DNA of 41,109 nt, taken from contig JBBTTM010000011.1 of the NCBI GenBank assembly GCA_038064255.1, positions 1 to 41,109 of the forward strand, given 5' to 3'. Position 1 is the stretch's first letter, and every line of letters begins with the position of its first letter. Of the stretch, positions 6,402-35,375 are shown one piece after another. A program made the translations under genes and the position numbers. Source of the DNA: Patescibacteria group bacterium. Lineage in GTDB: Bacteria; Patescibacteriota; Microgenomatia; UBA10105; UBA927. The notes under the pieces were generated by a model. It was given only the letters and a program-made list of their open reading frames with translations. It was not told the origin of the DNA and ran no database searches.

Positions 6402-6473
6402 GCTTCTGTATTTCAATGGATAGAATATAGCCCTCCGAAGGCTGAGATTGCAGTTCGACTCTGCACAGAAGCG
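6402..6473 (+). tRNA. tRNA-Arg (anticodon CCG)
   Basis: Hand-folded cloverleaf. The acceptor stem pairs gcttctg with cagaagc. The D arm pairs ttc with gaa and has a GG in the loop. The anticodon stem pairs tagcc with ggctg, with loop ctCCGaa. The T arm pairs tgcag with ctgca, with loop ttcgact. The discriminator is g, and CCA is not encoded. Confidence 0.8.
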
Positions 6474-6492
6474 CTAAATAGTTTCGATAAAT

Positions 6493-6562
6493 GAGATTGC
6501 AGTTCCCCGCCTGCAAACGCCTGAGTGCGTAGCGATGGCGGGCAGGGACTCTGCACAGAAGC
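6493..6562 (+). repeat. Direct duplication of the 3' end of tRNA-Arg (variable loop, T arm and acceptor 3' strand), interrupted in the T loop by a 43-nt GC-rich hairpin
   Basis: gagattgcagtt (6493-6504) and actctgcacagaagc (6548-6562) match tRNA positions 6444-6472 and flank ccccgcctgcaaacgcctgagtgcgtagcgatggcgggcaggg. No matching 5' acceptor strand accompanies this second copy. Confidence 0.7.
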
Positions 6563-7461: not shown

Positions 7462-8267
7462 TAAAATTTATACGTTTAGGTATTGGTATTATTTCTTTAT
7501 TTTCATTATTTTTTGTAATTCGAACTCACATATATGCACACGGCGGTGAAGTTCAGTATGTAAAAATAAACAAACAATATATTCCTGAGAATCCTATTGT
7601 AGGTACTATTACCCCTTCAAAATTTACAGTCGGATCTGAAAGTACCACCTCTGCGTATCTTGTCGGAAAAGAGATGCTTTTTGAAATTGACGAGGAAATC
7701 TTTCCGAATTCATCTCCATCTGTGAGACCGATATTTCAGTGGGATTTTTCAGACGGGGGAGAAAAAGCTGAGGGTTCGTCTGTTCGTCATATCTATAAAA
7801 AACCTGGAACGTATATAGTAAAAATTCTTGCGAAGTTTCAGGGAAAAGAAGATGAATTTAAACAGGTAAATACTGTTCAAATTGATGTTATGCCGGAGGA
7901 AAAATATATTCGTCCACGTGCCCGCATAATAGTAAATGGAAAAGAAGTTGAGAACTCAACGCGGGATGTGGTAACTCTCAGTCCAGGTAGAAACATTCTA
8001 TTTGATGCCTCAAAATCGCTAGGAAATATTAAAACATATGAGTGGGATTTTGGTGATTCAAATGGAGGGAAAACTTCCAGAGTATCTCATAGATATCCGA
8101 GGGATGAATTTTATCCTGTGGCAGTTTTGAGAGTAACAGATGATCTGGGTATTTCAAATGATACATATGTATCTCTCGATATGCCATATGTGAATTTAAA
8201 TATTGTCACTAGGCTTTTTTACAGTGTATATGATTTTATAGTCGGTTCTATATTGAAGTTATACTAA
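7458..8267 (+). CDS. Membrane-anchored or secreted protein with two PKD-like domains
   Basis: N-terminal hydrophobic helix, then two repeats with the PKD signature (WDFSDGG...HIYKKPGTYIVKI and WDFGDSNGG...HRYPRDEFYPVAVLRVTDDLG). ATGA overlap with the upstream permease. Confidence 0.7.
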   Translation: MIKFIRLGIGIISLFSLFFVIRTHIYAHGGEVQYVKINKQYIPENPIVGTITPSKFTVGSESTTSAYLVGKEMLFEIDEEIFPNSSPSVRPIFQWDFSDGGEKAEGSSVRHIYKKPGTYIVKILAKFQGKEDEFKQVNTVQIDVMPEEKYIRPRARIIVNGKEVENSTRDVVTLSPGRNILFDASKSLGNIKTYEWDFGDSNGGKTSRVSHRYPRDEFYPVAVLRVTDDLGISNDTYVSLDMPYVNLNIVTRLFYSVYDFIVGSILKLY

Positions 8268-8317
8268 CTTTTTAGTAGAGCCTAGTTTGTACGATAAATT
8301 CGTTCGGCAGAGTGACT

Positions 8318-8740
8318 TCATACTGAGAGAGAATTTTTACACGAAGAACAGAGGCCGAAAAATTCCAGTGCATGTGTTATCACGGAAAATCCTGTCTCTT
8401 TTTCTATGGATTGTTTTGTTTTTGGATCTAGACAGTCCGAGATATCTTTTACTGTGCCGCACTTGGTACAGACGATATGGTGATGGTGGGGAAGTGCCGC
8501 CAGTTCATATCTGAATTTTCCTTCATGGAGGTCGACTTGGCGGATAATGTGATTATCGAGAAGTATATGGATGATTCTATAGAGTGTCGCCTGGTCTATC
8601 TTGAGATTTTTTATGATCGGAGTATCCTCTATGTCCTGTATAGAGACAGGAGTTTTTTCATGAAAAATATATTCGAGAACAGCCTCGCGCGCCTTCGTTT
8701 TTTTTAAGTTTGCTGTAGACAACGTGAGCGCGACATTCAT
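8318..8740 (-). CDS. Fur-family metalloregulator (Fur/Zur/PerR type)
   Basis: A winged-helix N-terminus (QATLYRIIHILLDNHII) is followed by HHHHIVCTKCGTVKDI ... GLCSSC, giving CxxC...CxxC plus a His cluster typical of Fur. The likely start is the ATG at 8740 (MNVALTL); the track ORF extends to 8773. Confidence 0.75.
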   Translation of the reverse strand: MNVALTLSTANLKKTKAREAVLEYIFHEKTPVSIQDIEDTPIIKNLKIDQATLYRIIHILLDNHIIRQVDLHEGKFRYELAALPHHHHIVCTKCGTVKDISDCLDPKTKQSIEKETGFSVITHALEFFGLCSSCKNSLSV

Positions 8741-8848
8741 AGGAGAGATTATAGCACTCTCGCAGCTTCTCAATAACGCCCATTTAAACTAGTCTGTTTT
8801 TGTTATAAATTTTTTTGGTTTTTTAGTTTTCATATTTTTTGCATCTTT

Positions 8849-8879
8849 TTCGCGATCTACCTGCGGACTTCGTCCGTAC
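8849..8879. repeat. Copy of the GC-rich hairpin repeat (ttcgcgat-N-gcggac-NNN-gtccg)
   Basis: ttcgcgatctacctgcggacttcgtccgtac resembles the two copies at 14198-14237 and 14325-14364. It contains the hairpin gcggac/gtccgt. Confidence 0.5.
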
Positions 8880-8993
8880 TCCGACGCTGAAGCCTTGGCG
8901 TATGATGGCGGAGAACTAACAAAGTTAGAACTTATTTCATGACTGCAATGATTCTCTCAAAGCAATTGAATTATATCCTGTTTTAAAAAATAA

Positions 8994-9689
8994 CTAACTA
9001 ATTTTTCTCAAGTAATTTTGACGATGAAATTTAACGTTTCTTGAATTTGTTGCTAAATCTATAAAAATATTTACTCCGTCAATAACTCCCAAACGATTCC
9101 GGACAATATACGTGATCCCGTTAATTACTGCTATGTGATACGAAGTAATAGCATTATGAAAAATTTCTTTGACTACTTTTTCTATTTCACTTGCGTTTAA
9201 CGTTGTATCTATATCAATTTGAATATGTGGAAGGAAGTAATCGGTTTGTGGGTCATCTGCCTCAACCGGAACGAATTCGAGAAGTGGGTTCTCCCAGACC
9301 TCGGAATTACCTAAGAATAACCATAACCCAAAATCATTCGATTCTTCTTCATACAGGTATTGGTCTGTTTTTCTTGCTAAATCTATTAACCTTTGTCTTT
9401 CAATTTGTTGAGATTTGACTCGATAACCAAAACCAACATGGTTAAGCCTAACAATAGAATTATTACTATCCAAAGCAGTTATAAAATTTTTTAATAAAAT
9501 TAAATCTACTAACCCATCCTTTAATTTGCTTTTTTGATTAAATAAAATCGGAGTTACGTTTCCAATAGGAGTAATTACTTGTGAATCATCAACCGTAACT
9601 GGACAATTACTAGACTCTAAATTTTTACATGAAGATAGGATCTGAAAAATTTCCTCAAGAGTCTGATATAAATTTTTTGTTTTTGCCAT
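8994..9689 (-). CDS. Hypothetical protein (orphan, very AT-rich gene)
   Basis: 231-aa ORF with no motif I can assign. It is visibly more AT-rich than its neighbours. It sits between a weak repeat copy (8896-8939) and the tRNA-fragment repeat at 9717-9744. Confidence 0.5.
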   Translation of the reverse strand: MAKTKNLYQTLEEIFQILSSCKNLESSNCPVTVDDSQVITPIGNVTPILFNQKSKLKDGLVDLILLKNFITALDSNNSIVRLNHVGFGYRVKSQQIERQRLIDLARKTDQYLYEEESNDFGLWLFLGNSEVWENPLLEFVPVEADDPQTDYFLPHIQIDIDTTLNASEIEKVVKEIFHNAITSYHIAVINGITYIVRNRLGVIDGVNIFIDLATNSRNVKFHRQNYLRKIS

Positions 9690-9716: not shown

Positions 9717-9744
9717 AATTTAGGTTCGAATCCCGCCTCTTTCA
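9717..9744 (+). repeat. tRNA 3'-end-like fragment (T loop, T-stem 3' strand, acceptor 3' strand); left copy of a degenerate direct repeat
   Basis: aatttaggttcgaatcccgcctctttca contains the canonical GGTTCGAATCC T-loop, but there is no matching 5' half upstream. A degenerate copy lies at 14139-14163. Confidence 0.55.
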
Positions 9745-10050
9745 TTCGCCGTAGTTTTAACGAAGGCAACCTGTCAGGCTGAAGTTATAATATCATGTTT
9801 CTTCAAAAATGCTCTTCCTGAATCAAGTTTTAAATATTTCTCAAAATTGAATGTAGTGTACTTATTGAAAAAAGCGAAATAAGAAATGAGCTTTATTGGT
9901 AATCTTTCTTTTATTGATGGAACATCGCCTTTATTGTGTCTATCTATTCCATCTATAAACATACAAAAGACGACATAACGAAGGCGGAGCATGCTGGTCT
10001 GGAACCTAAGTATCCTTATAACCACTCCTGTCTCAAATATTCGTTAGCCT

Positions 10051-11793
10051 TTATAATCCTTTCTCTTTTAATTCCTCCAGTAATCTGCGTCTGCGCCGGT
10101 AATTCGTTTTTATGTCGTTTACATATGCGAAAAATTCCTTATCCATTCCGATACCCTGCATTATTTTCAAATGGTGTGCTGCTTCCTGATATTTCTGGGT
10201 ATCCGTTTCAACAAGCATTGCATCAATTTTCTTTTTATATTCCGCGAAACATTCGGCCGGATAGTGTTTTTCAATAGCGTTGACCATATCCGGAAAACAA
10301 TCAGCGTCGTGATGCGTTCTAACCAACTTCAGTATCCGGTCTTTTTGATCTTCGTATTTGTATACCTTAAACGCATGAAGGATATCATGTTCTTTCACAG
10401 AATGCGTTTCCATCCTCTGCCAGTACTGTTCCTTTTCCTGTGCTGATCGGTAGAACTTCACCAGCTCCTGATAATCCTTTAACGATCCTGTCAGTAAATG
10501 GATACGCTCCAGATTATTGATAAACGACAGATATTCGTTCGTAGGTGAGTAAACGGTTTTCATAAATTCCCGTATGGTGATTTCTAGATTCTGAACATCT
10601 CTTTCAAGCAACGAATAATCAATCTCGTCACGGGAAGCGAGCTGAGACAATACGTCCCGGGCATACCGGATCACATCGTCCCTTCTACCGACTTTCTGAA
10701 AATACGCCAGCAAATCGGGTGCTAATTCGGGATTTTCATGCAGGGCGCGGATGCTTACCGCTTCAAATTCCCGCATGTTTCCGGTCTGATGATACAGATA
10801 CGCCAGAAGACCGCTATTGGCAGACGACATGTCCTTGTGATCGGACTTCGTAAGGAGATCAATCATCATGCCTGCATCATCGCCGTTCAAATGTATCGTT
10901 TTGATGCTTTTGAATATTTGCTCCTGAAACATGGTGTCGTTCAAAAACACCGAACCAAAAAACCGCAAACCGACGCCCCGTAAGGCAGTATTATCCGTTT
11001 GAACTAATATGGATACGTATCGATCAATGCTTTCCTCTTTAGATGCAATAAACGCATCAGCCAGATCAATATACTCTCCCTTCAAACTGCCCTGCTTTTC
11101 ATCCAGCGCTTCGTATACAGCCTGATAAATTTTCATCGCTTCGGCGGCGTTGCCGTTTTCTTCGTACTGCCGGCCTTCGTCGATGAAATTCGAAACGATA
11201 TCTCCCAACGATGCTCCTTCGTAATAATTTCCGTACCCGTCGGTATCGTAGTAGTCTTCTCCTTCCACATACCACATCTCTAGAAGTTGTCTCATGTCCA
11301 ATCCGTTTAGTACTTTCATAAAACGGCTTGTATACTCCGAAATTCTCACCGGCGTTTCCTGTGGGCCTGCAAGAAATATCTTCAGATCTTCCGCCAGTTC
11401 TGGTTTCCGTTTGAGGAGTTTTAATAAAAAATCCTGAAGATCACCAGACGAACTTTCTAAGAGCAATCGCTTGATTTCGCTTTCATTATGAGAAGCGCCT
11501 GATTTCGGATGAGCAACATTCCGGTCCGAAGCAAACGCCAATATGGCAGCCACAACATGTTTGCATGCACCGCCGAAATCGTACGGGCAACTGCAAGAGT
11601 ACGTAAGTTCGTCATGATCAAAACGCAGCCGCACGCGATACGGCTCATTTCCCGTCACGGTTGCCGTAAATTCCTCTCCGTCTTTCCGTAATGCGCTGAC
11701 CAACCCGTCATCAAAGTATACTTTCCCTTTTTCAAACGAGGAAAAATTCGCCACGGAAAACGCCAGATCTTCGGTAAATGCGATCTTAGCCAT
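10051..11793 (-). CDS. SWIM zinc-finger domain protein with a long helical C-terminal region
   Basis: The N-terminal region has the SWIM signature CxCx(n)CxH (YSCSCPYDFGGACKHVVAAILAF). The remaining ~480 aa look helical-repeat-like and the tail is basic (YRRRRRLLEELKEKGL). Confidence 0.75.
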   Translation of the reverse strand: MAKIAFTEDLAFSVANFSSFEKGKVYFDDGLVSALRKDGEEFTATVTGNEPYRVRLRFDHDELTYSCSCPYDFGGACKHVVAAILAFASDRNVAHPKSGASHNESEIKRLLLESSSGDLQDFLLKLLKRKPELAEDLKIFLAGPQETPVRISEYTSRFMKVLNGLDMRQLLEMWYVEGEDYYDTDGYGNYYEGASLGDIVSNFIDEGRQYEENGNAAEAMKIYQAVYEALDEKQGSLKGEYIDLADAFIASKEESIDRYVSILVQTDNTALRGVGLRFFGSVFLNDTMFQEQIFKSIKTIHLNGDDAGMMIDLLTKSDHKDMSSANSGLLAYLYHQTGNMREFEAVSIRALHENPELAPDLLAYFQKVGRRDDVIRYARDVLSQLASRDEIDYSLLERDVQNLEITIREFMKTVYSPTNEYLSFINNLERIHLLTGSLKDYQELVKFYRSAQEKEQYWQRMETHSVKEHDILHAFKVYKYEDQKDRILKLVRTHHDADCFPDMVNAIEKHYPAECFAEYKKKIDAMLVETDTQKYQEAAHHLKIMQGIGMDKEFFAYVNDIKTNYRRRRRLLEELKEKGL

Positions 11794-12652
11794 AATATTC
11801 TTGGTATTTTTCCGTCGGACAGCGGTCGTCTAAAACCTTGTGAGGGAAATAATTCCAGAAATCCTCGAAGAACCGGGTATTCTCGACAACGACGTTGTAC
11901 CCAATCCCGATTTTCTTCAGGTCAGTATAAAAATCCGCATAGTGACCCCGATAATCTTCCTGATAAAGAAAATCCGCCAGTGTCTCAAATGAAGTGGTAA
12001 ACCCGTATGTGTGTTTCAATTGCGCAAACTGCCTGATCACACTGAGTCGTTTCCGCCGGATTGCCGTTTTCGTAATGTTCTTCTTCTGAGACTGTTTAGC
12101 GGGTGCCAGCACGAGTTGGGCTGCATGCTTTGGAGTGATGCGCTCCTTGTTTTCTTTCCGAAGCATCGTTTTCATCCTCTCGGTATACGTCATCGGGTAA
12201 AACGCAGGGTTACTACCGACAAAATAATACACATCTCCGACCCGCGCTACTCTGTTATAGAACGTACCTTTCCGATTTTCCATCTGCAGGGAGAGTGACC
12301 GCTCCGATACCGTGTACCGTTTTCCGGTAAATATTCCGATAACGGTTACCGATACGCCTGGTACATTACGTTCCACCTCAAATAGATCATAGACCGATGT
12401 CTGGATAATCTGCCGCAGTTCATCCATCAAATTTTCCGGCAACGCGTCCGGATTCTTCAGAAAATACTCCGTGATAACCGTCGTTCCCCCAGGTATCTTA
12501 TAATCGAAAATGAGCCATTCGTTAAACAATGAAGAAATTATTTCCGAATCCGGATTGATGGTATATTTCCCGAAGAATTCACCGGCGGCCTTACGGATGT
12601 CAGCTCCGCTTTTGGGAATATATGCCACTACCATGCCAAATTTAAAATTCAT
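11786..12652 (-). CDS. Hypothetical protein, translationally coupled to the SWIM protein
   Basis: 288-aa ORF whose end overlaps the SWIM gene start by 8 nt. No recognisable catalytic motif. The central linker is basic (KKNITKTAIRRKRL). Confidence 0.6.
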   Translation of the reverse strand: MNFKFGMVVAYIPKSGADIRKAAGEFFGKYTINPDSEIISSLFNEWLIFDYKIPGGTTVITEYFLKNPDALPENLMDELRQIIQTSVYDLFEVERNVPGVSVTVIGIFTGKRYTVSERSLSLQMENRKGTFYNRVARVGDVYYFVGSNPAFYPMTYTERMKTMLRKENKERITPKHAAQLVLAPAKQSQKKNITKTAIRRKRLSVIRQFAQLKHTYGFTTSFETLADFLYQEDYRGHYADFYTDLKKIGIGYNVVVENTRFFEDFWNYFPHKVLDDRCPTEKYQEYYG

Positions 12653-12890
12653 ACTCAGATTCTACCAGATTTATACCTGAAACGTCACAATGGTATAATA
12701 GAGAAAGTATGTACAATTGGAACACGCCAACAAAACACTTGACTACATCACGACAGACAACAATCTGGAAGCTTAATCAACATATCAACTTCGGTTTAAA
12801 TGGGACAAAATTGAATTTTCGTTTAATCCGTAAATATTGGAAGTCTCTTTCTCTTGATCCAAAACGAAAACAGTATCTGCACTATCTCCT

Positions 12891-13550
12891 ATGGGGAAAA
12901 CTATCCTAACACCCATCCAGCGAAAGGCGATCAGTACAATTGCCGCCGACGCGATTGTAAGAAAACATTTTTATCTATCCGGAGGCACAGCGCTTGCAGA
13001 ATACTATCTCCATCATCGGCTTTCCGAGGATTTGGATTTTTTTAGCGAAAACGAAATCGACGTACAATGGCTCAACACACTTTCCGGTAAAATACAATCC
13101 ACCGTTGGGGCATCGAAAAAAGATCTCCAACAAAGTTTTAACAGGAATCTTGCTTTTTTTACTATTGGAAAAACTATTTTAAAAACTGAGTTTACCTATT
13201 TCCCGTTCACGCAGGTCGAAAAACCGATGATAGCTGACAATCTCCATATAGATTCACTCTTAGATATTGCCGTCAACAAATTCTTTACCATCTATCAACA
13301 ACCCGCTAGCCGCCATTTTATCGACTTATTCTGTATCCTCCAATCATCGGGTATTGCGTGGGATAATCTACCAAAACTTGCTCGAATAAAATTCGATACG
13401 GTTATTGACCCACTGCAATTAGGAAGCCAGTTAATAATTGCAAAAAATATTGGACAACTCCCATGTATGATTCTTCCGGTTAAAGAAACAGCATGGAGAT
13501 CATTCTTTCTTGAAAAAGCGAGGTATCTAAAAAAAGAAATTGGTCAATAA
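12891..13550 (+). CDS. AbiEii/AbiGii-type nucleotidyltransferase (toxin-like, DUF1814 family), short form
   Basis: FYLSGGTALAEYYLHHRLSEDLDFF matches the GGTAL...R.S.DlDf nucleotidyltransferase signature of AbiEii-family proteins. No AbiEi-like wHTH antitoxin gene is visible upstream. Confidence 0.65.
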   Translation: MGKTILTPIQRKAISTIAADAIVRKHFYLSGGTALAEYYLHHRLSEDLDFFSENEIDVQWLNTLSGKIQSTVGASKKDLQQSFNRNLAFFTIGKTILKTEFTYFPFTQVEKPMIADNLHIDSLLDIAVNKFFTIYQQPASRHFIDLFCILQSSGIAWDNLPKLARIKFDTVIDPLQLGSQLIIAKNIGQLPCMILPVKETAWRSFFLEKARYLKKEIGQ

Positions 13551-13552
13551 GT

Positions 13553-14146
13553 ATGTATACTATGGACTATAAAACCAAAACATCGCTCATTTTACCTTTT
13601 AAAGGTACATGGATGGTAAGTAATGGCGGTAGAACAGCGGAAACAAATAATCACAATCGTCCTCCTGAACAAGGGCCACAAAACCAACTTTTAGCGTATG
13701 ATTTTAGAATGGAAAGTACAGGAAAAGAAACAAAACTTGAAGAGTTTACAGTATTTGGAAAAGAAGTTTTATCTCCCGGGGACGGAATAATAATCCAAAT
13801 AATTAATGGATCAGTTGACGTACTCCCAGAGGAGCGTGATAGAAGTGTCGGTGTAGGCAATGCAGTAATTATCGATCACCAAAATGGTGAATATAGTTTA
13901 CTTTGTCATTTTAAACACAATTCAATACGAGTAAAAGTTAGTGAAAAAGTAAAACAAGGTGACGTATTAGGTTTATGTGGCAATACAGGAAATACGACTC
14001 AACCTCATATTCATTTTAATCTTCAAGATGGACCGTTGATGCATAAAGCAAATGCATTACCAGTACAATTTAAGAAAATAATTATTGATGGAATAGCAAA
14101 AATAAACGCCGAACTCGTACGAGGGCAGCTAGTGTCCAATATTTAG
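13553..14146 (+). CDS. M23 (LytM-type) metallopeptidase without a signal peptide
   Basis: GLCGNTGNTTQPHIHFNLQDG carries the HxH motif and an upstream AYDF segment fits M23. The N-terminus is not hydrophobic. The start lies 2 nt after the stop of the AbiEii-like gene. Confidence 0.7.
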   Translation: MYTMDYKTKTSLILPFKGTWMVSNGGRTAETNNHNRPPEQGPQNQLLAYDFRMESTGKETKLEEFTVFGKEVLSPGDGIIIQIINGSVDVLPEERDRSVGVGNAVIIDHQNGEYSLLCHFKHNSIRVKVSEKVKQGDVLGLCGNTGNTTQPHIHFNLQDGPLMHKANALPVQFKKIIIDGIAKINAELVRGQLVSNI

Positions 14147-14163
14147 GTTCTAATCCCGTTTCA
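14139..14163 (+). repeat. Degenerate right copy of the tRNA T-loop-like direct repeat
   Basis: atatttaggttctaatcccgtttca compares with aatttaggttcgaatcccgcctctttca at 9717-9744, differing by one substitution in the T-loop and a 4-nt deletion. It overlaps the M23 stop codon. Confidence 0.5.
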
Positions 14164-14197
14164 TGTTAGCCTCAAAGCTAAACAAACTATTGAATTT

Positions 14198-14237
14198 CTC
14201 TCCTTCGCGATATATAGCGGACTGCGTCCGCCGAAGG
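14198..14237. repeat. GC-rich hairpin repeat, copy 1 at the tRNA-Ser flank
   Basis: ctctccttcgcgatatatagcggactgcgtccgccgaagg, with the hairpin gcggac-tgc-gtccgc. Confidence 0.6.
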
Positions 14238-14324
14238 TCGCCCACGAATAACAACCTTTTCTTTACCCTTAGTTATATCTTTCATGAACGAAAGTCGCCG
14301 TCGCTAAAAGTTTTGCGACCGAAT

Positions 14325-14380
14325 CTCTCCTTCGCGATTTATTTGCGGACCGCGTCCGCCGTAGTCCCGCGAAGCGGGAC
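14325..14380. repeat. GC-rich hairpin repeat, copy 2, plus a second hairpin gtcccgc-gaa-gcgggac abutting the tRNA-Ser 3' end
   Basis: ctctccttcgcgatttatttgcggaccgcgtccgccgtag is near-identical in its core to copy 1. The 7-bp hairpin at 14364-14380 may be the tRNA-Ser 3' processing or terminator structure on the minus strand. Confidence 0.6.
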
Positions 14381-14385
14381 GAAGG

Positions 14386-14472
14386 CGGAAGGGGAGGGAT
14401 TTGAACCCTCGGTAACCTTGCGGCTACACGCGCTCTCCAAGCGCGCGCACTAGACCACTATGCGACCCTTCC
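14386..14472 (-). tRNA. tRNA-Ser (anticodon GGA)
   Basis: The reverse complement folds as a cloverleaf. The acceptor stem pairs GGAAGGG with CCCTTCC. The D arm pairs GCA with TGC and has GG in the loop. The anticodon stem pairs CGCGC with GCGCG, with loop TTGGAGA. There is a long variable arm (TGTAGCCGCAAGGTTACC). The T arm pairs GAGGG with CCCTC, with loop TTCAAAT. The discriminator is G. Confidence 0.85.
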
Positions 14473-18313: not shown

Positions 18314-18365
18314 TAGTATTTGTTATTGGTAGTATTAACCTATATTGTGCTATTCTCCTACTGCT

Positions 18366-20237
18366 ATGGGTGATATAGACGAAGTGAAATCAAGGATCGA
18401 TATAATAGACTTTATAGGGAGTCGTGTGAAGTTGTCGAAAGCCGGGAGAAACTTTAAGGGTTTGTGTCCGTTTCATAGCGAAAAATCTCCATCATTTATG
18501 GTCTCCCCGGACCGTCAGGTGTTTCACTGTTTCGGGTGTGGGAAAGGGGGATCGGCGATAGATTTTCTCATGGAACTTGAGCATCTCGAGTTTTCAGAAG
18601 CACTCATAGAGCTTGCAGAAAAAACGGGTGTGACACTTGAACATAAAGCGAGCACCACCGAAAGCGGAAAGCTCAAAGAGCAGATATATAGCGCAAATCA
18701 TCTTGCAGGTGAATATTTTCAATATCTTCTTTTGTCTCATAGTCTTGGAAAAAACGCACGGGAGTATCTTAAAAATCGGGGAGTATCGGAAAAAATTATC
18801 AAAACATTCGGGCTTGGTTACAGTCCAAATAGTTGGGATGGAGTGCTTTCGTACCTCCGAAAGAAAGGATACGACGAGAAATTGCTTGAAACTGCCGGAC
18901 TTGTAGTAAAAAGCGACCGTGGCGGGTGGTACGACAGATTTCGGGGTCGGGTCATGTTTACATTAAAAGACCACAGAGGAAATGTCGCTGGATTTTCCGG
19001 TCGAATCCTCCCCCCTTCGCATTTCGTCTCGCTTCGATCCGAAGGATCTCACTCTACTCAAGCTACGGAGGGGCAGGCGCAACCAAAATATATCAATACC
19101 AATGAAACGCCGGTGTATAACAAGAGTTCGATACTGTACGCGTTGGATATTACAAAAGATGCAATTGCAAAGGCAGGGGAAGCAGTCATCATGGAAGGAG
19201 AATTTGACGTTATCTCTTCGTTTCAGGCGGGGATAAGTAATGTCGTCGCCATAAAAGGTTCCGCGCTTACAGAGGGACATGTTCACCTTCTAAAACGCTA
19301 TACTGAGCGGATCATTCTTTGCCTTGACAGTGATTTTGCCGGAGACAAGGCAAGCCGTAGGGGGATAGAGATAGCGGAAAAAGCGGGATTAGATATCCGG
19401 GTCGCACAGGTCGTAGATGGGAAAGATCCGGATGATGTAGCGCGGAGTGAACCGCATCTTTTAAAAAAAGCAATAACAGAGGCACTGCCGATATACGATT
19501 ATATTATGGCTTCAGTGTTAAAGCGTCACGATCTTTCTTCTGCTTTCGGAAAGAAAAAAGCGAGTGAGGAAATTTTGCCATTTTTTGTACGGATAGAAAA
19601 TCCGATAGTTCTTGGACATTATATAAAAAAAGCAAGTGAACTTCTTGGTATATCGGAATCTGCGATATCAGAAGGATTACGACAGGTGGCGCGAAAAGTT
19701 GCTATACCTACGGGGACGAGTATAGATCAGAATGTGTTACAAAAACAGTCACGCGGAAGGGATGAGATGGTTGAAGTATATGTATTGGCACTTCTCTTTC
19801 AGGGAAAAACTCTAGAACTATATGAAGAATTATCGGAGATTCTATCACCAAATGATTTTACGTATCCTGCAGTAAAACGGGTACTTGAAACATTGAGTAT
19901 TTTTTTGGTGACTCGAAAAAGCCAGCCATTTTTTTTGAAAGATTTTCTTGAGACTGTGCCTGTTGAGCTTATGCCAACGATAGACGAGGTGCTTTTGTAT
20001 GATACATCGTCATTCGCAGAAAATGATGAACTGAGTGCACGTGAGTGGATGAAATCACTCCGTCAATTGCGCCTTCTCGTGCTTCGGAGAAAAATCAGAT
20101 ATCTCAATACAACCATACAAAAACGGTCACACGAAACGGACACAACAGTATTTGATCCGTCTACAGAGACTTTACAGGAAGAGCTCAATACTTCCATAGT
20201 CCTACTTTCAGTTCTGGAAAAATCAGCCTCGCTTTGA
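18366..20237 (+). CDS. dnaG: DNA primase
   Basis: Zinc-ribbon CPFHSEKSPSFMVSPDRQVFHCFGCGKGG, a Toprim domain (VIMEGEFDVISSFQAGI ... LCLDSDFAGDKA) and the PKYINTNET motif. The ATG at 18366 is the preferred start. Confidence 0.9.
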   Translation: MGDIDEVKSRIDIIDFIGSRVKLSKAGRNFKGLCPFHSEKSPSFMVSPDRQVFHCFGCGKGGSAIDFLMELEHLEFSEALIELAEKTGVTLEHKASTTESGKLKEQIYSANHLAGEYFQYLLLSHSLGKNAREYLKNRGVSEKIIKTFGLGYSPNSWDGVLSYLRKKGYDEKLLETAGLVVKSDRGGWYDRFRGRVMFTLKDHRGNVAGFSGRILPPSHFVSLRSEGSHSTQATEGQAQPKYINTNETPVYNKSSILYALDITKDAIAKAGEAVIMEGEFDVISSFQAGISNVVAIKGSALTEGHVHLLKRYTERIILCLDSDFAGDKASRRGIEIAEKAGLDIRVAQVVDGKDPDDVARSEPHLLKKAITEALPIYDYIMASVLKRHDLSSAFGKKKASEEILPFFVRIENPIVLGHYIKKASELLGISESAISEGLRQVARKVAIPTGTSIDQNVLQKQSRGRDEMVEVYVLALLFQGKTLELYEELSEILSPNDFTYPAVKRVLETLSIFLVTRKSQPFFLKDFLETVPVELMPTIDEVLLYDTSSFAENDELSAREWMKSLRQLRLLVLRRKIRYLNTTIQKRSHETDTTVFDPSTETLQEELNTSIVLLSVLEKSASL

Positions 20238-35125: not shown

Positions 35126-35215
35126 GTATCGCTTTTTTTATCCTCAATATGAGAGTTGAGTCATTATATCAAAAAGAGTGGGTTTGTTATTCAGGGGTAT
35201 TTTTGTTAGTATAAA

Positions 35216-35345
35216 TGTGCATCAAGAGTGGCGGAGATATTCCGCCCGGCAACCGAGACTTTATACAAAGAACACGGTGCTAAAAATCTTAAGAGGATTG
35301 ATGTGGTATGAATCGTTCTTACGGTTCATACAAAAATATATTTGT
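35216..35345 (+). ncRNA. SAM riboswitch-like leader (SAM-I core with a shortened P2; SAM-I/IV-like) controlling metK
   Basis: The sequence catcaagagtggcggagatattccgcccggcaacc ... acggtgctaa ... aatcttaagaggattgatg carries the conserved AUCAAGAG, GGCAACC and GGUGCUAA blocks. P1 pairs catc(aa) with (tt)gatg. Confidence 0.55.
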
Positions 35346-35375
35346 ACTCCTCTTAAGTTTGAGAGGAGTTTTTTT
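35346..35375 (+). terminator. Intrinsic terminator (expression platform of the SAM leader)
   Basis: The 8-bp stem pairs actcctct with agaggagt, with an 8-nt loop and a T run running into the metK ATG. The 5' arm tcctcttaag (35348-35357) is perfectly complementary to cttaagagga (35288-35297) in the aptamer 3' side, which is anti-terminator logic. Confidence 0.6.

Follow-up and report, generated by a model that had tools for sequence, protein, structure and literature searches.

We analyzed a 41,109-bp stretch of DNA (hereafter, the window), which is the entire contig C11 of a 1.22-Mb assembly (140 contigs, 42% GC) from a groundwater bacterium of the Candidate Phyla Radiation (CPR)/Patescibacteria whose nearest relatives are named Candidatus Gottesmanbacteria. 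The window contains a real tRNA-linked, integrase-less islet of ~4.4 kb at the tRNA-Ser(GGA) gene, which is probably a relic. The whole interval between the Fur gene and tRNA-Ser(GGA) is likely an insertion hot spot that was filled by accretion. A relic islet at tRNA-Ser was already proposed in the original prediction made on this DNA: horizontal acquisition and the lack of an integrase are in agreement with our results, but the boundaries and the mechanism needed correction. Indeed, the islet had been delimited by two T-loop-like direct repeats, whereas the better-supported boundaries are a decayed stub of a tRNA-Ser end (9978–10006) and the 3′ end of tRNA-Ser(GGA) itself (14379–14407). Comparisons were made across 81 genomes of the family (35 genera), the present genome included; relatives are labeled G001, G003, G006 and so on, with G001 belonging to the same genus (congener) and G006 and G013 to other genera. 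The features of the islet and its junctions are as follows.

9717–9744 (aligned part 9718–9745), + strand: left T-loop-like copy (TL), 3′ half of a pseudo-tRNA-Ser in its G-variant form TTCGAAT (local alignment)
9746–9767, + strand: 22-nt GTAG/CGAAG hairpin TCGCCGTAGTTTTAACGAAGGC, inserted in the motif
9774–10025 (GIY-YIG homology 9774–9954), − strand: small open reading frame (ORF) including a GIY-YIG remnant, pseudogene with its 5′ part lost
9978–10006, − strand: distal junction repeat (tRNA-Ser stub), GGTTCCAGACCAGCATGCTCCGCC then TTCGT (scan with an outside query, nhmmer, alignment)
10051–11793, − strand: SWIM zinc-finger protein, 580 aa, cargo 1 (Pfam SWIM)
11786–12652, − strand: 288-aa protein (p288), cargo 1 (the cassette spans 10051–12652)
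12709–12909, + strand: AbiEi-like protein, 66 aa, cargo 2 (AbiE block 12668–13550)
12891–13550, + strand: AbiEii, cargo 2 (Pfam and PADLOC)
13553–14146, + strand: M23 peptidase, cargo 3 (Pfam PF01551; NCBIfam M23 families below cut-offs)
14139–14163 (annotated as 14141–14163), + strand: right T-loop-like copy (TR), 3′ half of a pseudo-tRNA-Ser in its T-variant form TTCTAAT, convergent with tRNA-Ser as is usual for the motif
14190–14383, no strand: type-B tRNA-Ser trailer in two copies (R4, 14190–14250; R5, 14311–14383)
14379–14407, − strand: proximal junction repeat, formed by the final 24 nt of tRNA-Ser and the first 5 nt of trailer, GGTTCAAATCCCTCCCCTTCCGCC then TTCGT
14384–14472, − strand: tRNA-Ser(GGA), intact, with its 3′ end toward the islet (ARAGORN; Rfam RF00005, 55 bits)

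The distal junction falls in an interval that is set independently by the end of the GIY-YIG homology (about 9954) and by the edge of the SWIM cassette (10051). This interval contains GGTTCCAGACCAGCATGCTCCGCC followed by TTCGT on the strand of the tRNA, and the stub lies exactly within it. We scanned 2.43 million positions of the genome with a 29-nt query composed of the tRNA-Ser(GGA) end of G003 and five bases of its trailer. Only two positions reached at least 22/29: the resident tRNA end (25/29) and the stub (22/29), and the chance expectation of finding the stub in the 96-nt junction interval is ~1e-4. When searching with nhmmer and a profile of the tRNA-Ser 3′ halves of the family, only the tRNA and the left motif ranked above the stub within the window. 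In the alignment, what is left of the GIY-YIG start, in degenerate form, comes directly after the stub. Stub and tRNA end form a pair of direct repeats located 4,401 bp apart, the arrangement that is left when a circle integrates into the 3′ end of a tRNA gene. The recurrence of an 11-mer (9978–9988) that had been noticed in the original prediction is real; it forms the core of this stub repeat and turned out to be the most informative item of that prediction. On the other side, the trailer and the cargo begin at 14383 and abut tRNA-Ser(GGA).

The genes enclosed in the islet were predicted to be of accessory type. The SWIM pair is PDC-S62-like, the AbiE pair is of defense type and both are patchy among relatives. 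The SWIM/p288 pair was found in a single genome of the family and is missing from the 80 relatives. Its SWIM homologues (35 proteins) are always paired with a 288–291-aa partner and occur in other contexts, beside Fic and toxin-antitoxin genes. The pair presents 78–79% DNA identity to metagenome contigs, with a homology that ends exactly at the ORF edges, and the N-terminus of cargo 1 matches the PADLOC defense candidate PDC-S62 (1.3e-22). The AbiE pair is 84% identical at the protein level (79% at the DNA level) to that of G013, where it is located between the motif described below and tRNA-Ser(GGA), whereas the housekeeping HI0933 protein of the same genome is only 57% identical. In contrast, the AbiEii of the congener is 31% identical and in the opposite orientation. 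For the M23 peptidase, no homologue was found in the loci that we fetched. From these comparisons, the cargo is foreign, mosaic and horizontally exchanged. A near-identical contig from Hainich diverges sharply from the window at 12489–12595, the 5′ end of the gene encoding the 288-aa protein (22 substitutions and a 9-nt insertion), which may reflect a boundary of recombination or the presence of another allele in the population.

The congener G001 presents the same flanks (Fur, 90% aa identity; HI0933, 79%). Its Fur–tRNA-Ser interval holds the other AbiE pair (31%) and a methyltransferase, so that the comparison of synteny recommended in the original prediction did reveal different genes at the same place. 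Near-identical contigs from three other assemblies display the same layout as the window, which indicates that the islet is stable in the sampled population. Finally, an 85%-identical contig carrying HI0933 presents a broken tRNA-Ser and ends too soon to show the interval. Only the first 13 nt of tRNA-Ser(GGA) are found beside HI0933 in this contig (1–130), followed by unrelated GC hairpins, so that the breakpoint in this relative lies within the tRNA.

The left side of the islet corresponds to an older flank. Together, TL, its hairpin and the GIY-YIG remnant are 80.6% identical over 216 nt to G006, in which tRNA-Ser(GGA) is followed by a trailer, an intact GIY-YIG gene of 80 aa, the hairpin and the motif. 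The left copy carries TTCGAAT and the 22-nt hairpin, and the hairpin of G006 is inserted at the same position. Residues 25–81 of the small ORF of the window share 75–83% identity with the GIY-YIG ORFs found in G016, G006 and G003 (the homologue of G003 matches PF01541), while its first 24 residues are without homology. Because the homology starts only at residue 25, the GIY-YIG gene of the window is truncated at ~9955. This break is located 210 nt inside the interval bounded by the T-loop-like repeats. Since TL is contiguous with the GIY-YIG module, as it is beside tRNA-Ser(GGA) in other genera, it belongs to the old flank. No significant homology was found between the spacer 9771–9977 and the right-hand trailer beyond the 11-mer.

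Small GIY-YIG genes beside tRNA genes are known from phage T4, where SegB is a free-standing GIY-YIG homing endonuclease encoded in a tRNA gene cluster (PMC2330249). As for SegB (PMC2330249), the GIY-YIG gene of these loci lies directly beside a tRNA gene, and the module is more conserved across genera (75–83% aa identity) than housekeeping genes are (57%). In contrast to SegB, the proteins of the relatives are ~80 aa long, and contain PF01541 only, i.e., the predicted nuclease domain. The copy of the window is a truncated pseudogene without its first ~23 codons and does not present the intact catalytic and DNA-binding domains of a free-standing homing endonuclease. Two GIY-YIG paralogues were observed elsewhere in the genome. 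One of them, on contig C135, is directly upstream of a tRNA-Ile(TAT) whose 3′ end is repeated downstream; a tyrosine recombinase is encoded on the same contig, together with a tRNA-Met whose 3′ end is duplicated (C135 regions 10269–10415 and 12336–12815). The second is on C136 (4764–4913).

The two T-loop-like repeats exist on the + strand at the positions originally reported. Their best local alignment (9718–9745 vs 14141–14164) spans 28 columns with 23/24 identities, one mismatch and one 4-nt gap. Its score of 35 exceeds the values obtained in 300 shuffles (19.0 ± 2.1; maximum 27), so the similarity is above chance in this test. Allowing up to two mismatches, the 18-mer core, which is 17/18 identical between the copies, was found at these two sites alone in the 1.22-Mb genome. 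Dinucleotide shuffles predict 0.025 such 17/18 pairs per 7 kb, but about one-third of the real 7-kb windows of the genome (runs of N excluded) hold a 17/18 direct pair, and the shuffle test alone therefore overstates the significance. Several of these background pairs are tRNA 3′ ends that are duplicated 60–200 nt downstream of their own tRNA. The reality of the repeats is instead decided by their sequence homology to a family-wide motif outside the window. The pattern TTAGGTTCKAATCCCG (at most one mismatch) was identified in 24 of the 81 genomes and in 17 of the 35 genera, and the reversed control pattern yielded no match. The repeats had been described as the 3′ part of a tRNA, which they are: they align with real tRNA-Ser 3′ ends and continue with TTTCA and the same hairpin. 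Compared to the tRNA-Ser genes of other Patescibacteria, the left copy is the 3′ half of a tRNA-Ser from which a short stretch has been deleted. The intact source tRNA expected to carry that exact 3′ end was not found: none of the 45 tRNAs of the genome matches GGTTCGAATCCCGCCTCTTTCA, and the exact 21-mer of the repeat's tRNA end has no match in 185,579 species genomes or in IMG/VR. The conservation of the motif across the family also contradicts the view that the repeats are private products of decay.

The right copy belongs to another trailer variant, which now abuts the tRNA. It presents TTCTAAT without the hairpin, and it overlaps the TAG stop codon of the M23 gene (14144–14146). A 108-nt stretch comprising this copy and the R4 repeat shows 78.7% identity to a module of G056. 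The R5 trailer, which abuts the tRNA, is homologous to the trailer of tRNA-Ser(TGA) in G006 (score 76 vs a null maximum of 25), and R4 and R5 share 38 nt at 89%. Hairpins in the R4/R5 region are of the forms GCGGAC/GTCCGC and CGTAG-hairpin-CGAAGG. Within the genome, this family of trailers is confined to the present locus (nhmmer), and its homologues are the tRNA-Ser trailers of G006 and G056. Since TL and TR are different variants with different matches across genera, the right copy is part of a second trailer module and the left copy is part of the old flank.

These observations are consistent with the following scenario. The ancestral layout would have been that of G006, G003 and related genera: tRNA-Ser(GGA), a short trailer, a small GIY-YIG gene and the inverted motif. 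About 4.4 kb of foreign DNA would have recombined in a Campbell-like manner into the 3′ end of the tRNA. The intact tRNA would now carry the trailer of the incomer (R5/R4) and the incomer's copy of the motif (TR), followed by the M23, AbiE and SWIM/PDC-S62-like genes as cargo. The original tRNA 3′ end, once displaced, would persist as the decayed stub at 9978–10006, fused through a deletion to the truncated GIY-YIG gene and to the old motif copy TL. The orphan gene described below, bounded near Fur by the R1 trailer/stub, may be the trace of a previous accretion of this kind. No recombinase gene is present in the segment, and the islet would at present be immobile or depend on a recombinase supplied in trans.

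Several observations weigh against this scenario. The stub shares only 20/29 positions with the resident tRNA end, and it is a single 29-nt match that identifies it as a junction. The three cargo cassettes adjoin one another with no intervening repeats, and more than one event could also explain the locus. No integrase, transposase or excisionase was detected in or beside the segment in a domain scan of the ORFs of 6.5–15.9 kb, confirming the absence of an integrase that had been noted on this DNA, and no tyrosine recombinase or integrase was detected near the motif in 20 relatives. The three PF00589 genes of the genome are all on other contigs. No empty site was found in a close relative (>95% identical), as look-ups of exact proteins returned only contigs with the same layout, and the insertion is therefore deduced from other genera. 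The composition of the segment is also not distinctive: overall it presents 41.4% GC (39th percentile) and an average tetranucleotide usage, and the windowed analysis proposed in the original prediction does not set it apart. The SWIM pair had been described as more GC-rich than its flanks, which holds mildly for the pair (44.6%, 84th percentile) but not for the segment as a whole. The blocks of the locus diverge in opposite directions (31.5%, 44.6% and 37.2% GC), a heterogeneity that speaks for foreign cargo. Finally, homology-facilitated illegitimate recombination following DNA uptake could produce the same picture.

This last point corresponds to an alternative in which no site-specific event took place: DNA acquired by natural transformation would have been incorporated by homologous or homology-facilitated illegitimate recombination, with tRNA-Ser and its trailer as the anchor, and the repeats would be paralogous pieces of tRNA-Ser trailers carried by both donor and recipient. 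The absence of a recombinase, the untidy left junction with its truncated gene and the sharp ORF-to-ORF edges of the cassettes all speak for it, and homology would be on offer, as the trailer and motif modules are common to genera and isoacceptors. However, a stub of the tRNA end in direct orientation at the far junction is predicted by the integration of a circle through a single crossover and not by a double-crossover replacement, and we consider this alternative unlikely. That the similarity of the repeats is due to chance and the gene order ancestral is hardly credible: the blastn-short E-value of the 18-mer is 1.3 genome-wide and, as mentioned above, 17/18 pairs are common in real windows, but this reading is contradicted by the conservation of the motif across the family with no match for its reversed control, by the extended homology of both copies to modules of other genera and by cargo that is missing from relatives, such as the SWIM pair, or replaced in them.

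The reading closest to the original prediction, in which the T-loop-like repeats (9717–9744 and 14139–14163) are the att repeats of one integration and the islet lies exactly between them, is in our view distinctly improbable. These repeats are indeed direct, above chance and on both sides of accessory genes, and direct pairs of the motif also flank gene blocks of 1–2.6 kb in G003, G044 and G056. However, TL and TR are not the same variant: TL has G in the loop and carries the 22-nt hairpin, whereas TR has T and lacks it, and each is nearer to the copies of other genera than to its partner. In addition, TL is contiguous with the ancestral GIY-YIG module, a gene that is broken inside the supposed islet, and the motif is conserved at tRNA-Ser loci as a single copy and is inverted relative to the tRNA. 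Integration at the tRNA 3′ end, with the stub as the distal junction, remains the reading that we favor.

We further analyzed the distribution of the pseudo-tRNA-Ser motif in the family. It is mostly present as a single copy beside tRNA-Ser, with 3–4 copies in some genomes. In nearly every locus fetched, it is convergent to a tRNA-Ser (GGA, TGA, CGA or GCT), i.e., inverted relative to the tRNA, most often at a distance of 93–105 nt (~95 nt downstream). A profile built from the two copies of the window recovered a third copy in the genome, on C94 (2414–2440), 95 nt downstream of tRNA-Ser(CGA) and likewise convergent. Alignments across genera showed that the trailer is conserved up to the motif, where it stops abruptly (consensus TTAGGTTCTAATCCCGCCCCCTGTCAGCC), with two types of trailers that are common to several genera and tRNA-Ser isoacceptors. 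The spacing between tRNA-Ser and the motif forms a series: ~95 nt (empty), 350–410 nt (GIY-YIG only), 644 nt, 1.2–1.3 kb, 1.6 kb (AbiE in G013) and 4.65 kb in the present genome. Two or three direct copies of the motif with 1–2.6 kb of assorted genes between them were found in G003, G044 and G056. In G044, a 35%-identical homologue of p288 is located between two direct copies, beside a GIY-YIG gene. In 17 of the 35 genera, the pseudo-tRNA-Ser half is convergent to tRNA-Ser genes, all isoacceptors included, and it marks sites of varying cargo.

Several possible identities of this motif were evaluated. It is not kept as the complement of the neighboring tRNA, as the T-arms next to it are variable and the motif itself is constant. 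The trailer/module of tRNA-Ser presents no conserved secondary structure and no covarying pairs on either strand, and therefore a structured non-coding RNA or an attC-like hairpin is unsupported; Rfam did not match the module in four relatives. An integron cassette array or a cluster of attC sites lacking integron-integrases (CALIN) was rejected, as the motif is conserved in sequence, lacks a conserved secondary structure and does not intervene between the cassettes, which abut. A dif/Xer site was rejected by eye, the motif showing no resemblance to dif consensus sequences and being present in only 24 of the 81 genomes and sometimes in 3–4 copies. When the module from the motif to the tRNA end was evaluated as a miniature inverted-repeat transposable element, inverted TAGGTTCTAA ends were found in elements of G003, G056 and G053, with no clear target-site duplication. 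One speculative reading, to which we give little credence, is that the tRNA-Ser 3′ end and the convergent pseudo-tRNA-Ser half TTAGGTTCTAATCCCGCCCCCTGTCAGCC constitute a landing pad of Gottesmanbacteria without a cis-encoded recombinase. Cassettes (GIY-YIG, AbiE, the p288/SWIM pair and metabolic genes) would be inserted, duplicated and exchanged between genera by a host-encoded or trans-acting enzyme that recognizes tRNA-Ser-like DNA. If true, this would represent a tRNA-mimic analogue of the attC or dif-module cassette systems.

Islands linked to tRNA genes are well known, and their accreted, integrase-less remnants correspond to the cis-mobilizable elements (CIME) of the ICESt1/ICESt3 family of Streptococcus thermophilus. 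The islet resembles these elements by its location at a tRNA 3′ end, the partial direct repeat on its far side, its accessory/defense cargo, its patchy distribution, including different content in close relatives, and its successive units in tandem. In contrast to these elements, no integrase is found nearby or beside the motif in relatives, the repeat is decayed (20–22/29) and provides only moderate evidence as a distal copy of the tRNA 3′ segment, the incomer would bring a whole tRNA-Ser trailer with its own pseudo-tRNA half, and mobility is putative. Islands of Patescibacteria are already documented: hundreds were predicted by composition with IslandViewer in 125 aquifer genomes (PMC12455944), a study in which tRNA is mentioned 0 times and in which neither the tRNA-Ser junctions nor the motif are described. 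Like those islands, the islet is small, belongs to a groundwater CPR genome and carries defense-related cargo that is mostly exchanged among Patescibacteria. Unlike them, it would probably escape composition-based detection, because the segment as a whole is average. The islet is therefore a worked example of one more small tRNA-linked island, and it suggests that CPR genomes stack defense cassettes at a tRNA gene without carrying an integrase. If the motif or the 22-nt hairpin is the site of a recombination or transposition enzyme, these loci would hint at an undescribed route of gene movement in reduced genomes.

The similarity between the hairpin at 9746–9767 and the sequence at 14356–14388, which had been pointed out on this DNA, is real, and both are copies of a dispersed family of hairpins. 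The CGTAG-(loop or hairpin)-CGAAGG family has at least 20 copies in the genome (21 strict matches; a loose pattern gave 7–14 matches in shuffles). The exact 22-mer TCGCCGTAGTTTTAACGAAGGC was found in 29 genome contigs, which represent many phyla, and in 81 contigs from metagenomes. Its hosts include Patescibacteria, Deltaproteobacteria (five copies in one chromosome), Berkiella, Pirellulales, Verrucomicrobiia, Chitinophagaceae and others, so that the hairpin is shared letter for letter from Patescibacteria to Deltaproteobacteria, Planctomycetes and Bacteroidota. It is often located directly downstream of tRNA-Ser genes, and its 3–4-nt flanks appear complementary by eye. One CGTAG...CGAAGG element (19011–19067, − strand) is in frame in dnaG (18345–20237), where it adds ~24 residues (PPSHFVSLRSEGSHSTQATEGQAQ) between conserved primase blocks.

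Repetitive extragenic palindromic (REP) elements and the hairpins formed by REP doublets (REPINs) are moved by REP-associated tyrosine transposases (RAYT; Y1 family), and comparable insertions are known as the Rickettsia palindromic elements. The genome encodes four Y1_Tnp (RAYT-like) genes (PF01797 above cut-off), which makes a REP-like origin of the hairpin plausible by analogy. The likeness lies in the GTAG beside the hairpin, the many intergenic copies, the in-frame copy in dnaG and these four genes. The differences from genome-specific REPs are the smaller units (22–60 nt) and the identity of the 22-mer across phyla, and a link to a particular RAYT would be putative.

The remaining features around the islet are listed below.

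6402–6474, + strand: tRNA-Arg(CCG)
between tRNA-Arg(CCG) and Fur (no coordinates listed): EamA, then PKD
8318–8773, − strand: Fur gene, conserved chromosomal flank (Pfam)
8837–8975, no strand: third trailer copy R1 (8837–8912) and conserved block (8908–8975) (alignments, nhmmer)
8994–9689, − strand: orphan gene, 231 aa, AT-rich (31.5% GC)
beyond tRNA-Ser(GGA) (no coordinates listed): HI0933-like flavoprotein

A weaker third copy of the repeats had been proposed at 8897–8939. It belongs to a real repeat, R1, which aligns with 14311–14389 (score 40 vs a null maximum of 29; z ~9). The alignment reaches the tRNA terminus GGCGGA, and R1 ends in GGCGGAG, the terminus of tRNA-Ser. The adjacent block (8908–8975) recurs at the ends of elements in G003, G053 and G056. 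The GC-content of the orphan gene corresponds to the 0.6th percentile of the genome; the gene has no match in Pfam, PADLOC or NCBIfam and no homologue in the loci fetched. With lower confidence, the orphan gene and the R1 trailer/stub beside Fur suggest an older round of accretion. In the congener, an additional 487-aa ORF without Pfam match is found between PKD and Fur (locus 7650–9113) and is missing from the window, indicating that the far side of Fur is variable too. Scanning the window with Rfam identified the two tRNAs and a SAM-I/IV riboswitch above the gathering threshold (35214–35347) and nothing else. Finally, the last ~31 nt of tRNA-Arg(CCG) are copied again 10 nt downstream (window 6402–6562), and this second copy is interrupted in its T-loop by a GC-rich hairpin of ~41 nt (CCCGCC...GGCGGG). 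The same family of hairpins is found on C36, C63, C70, C86 and C135; on the last of these contigs, it is again located within repeated 3′ fragments of tRNA-Ile.

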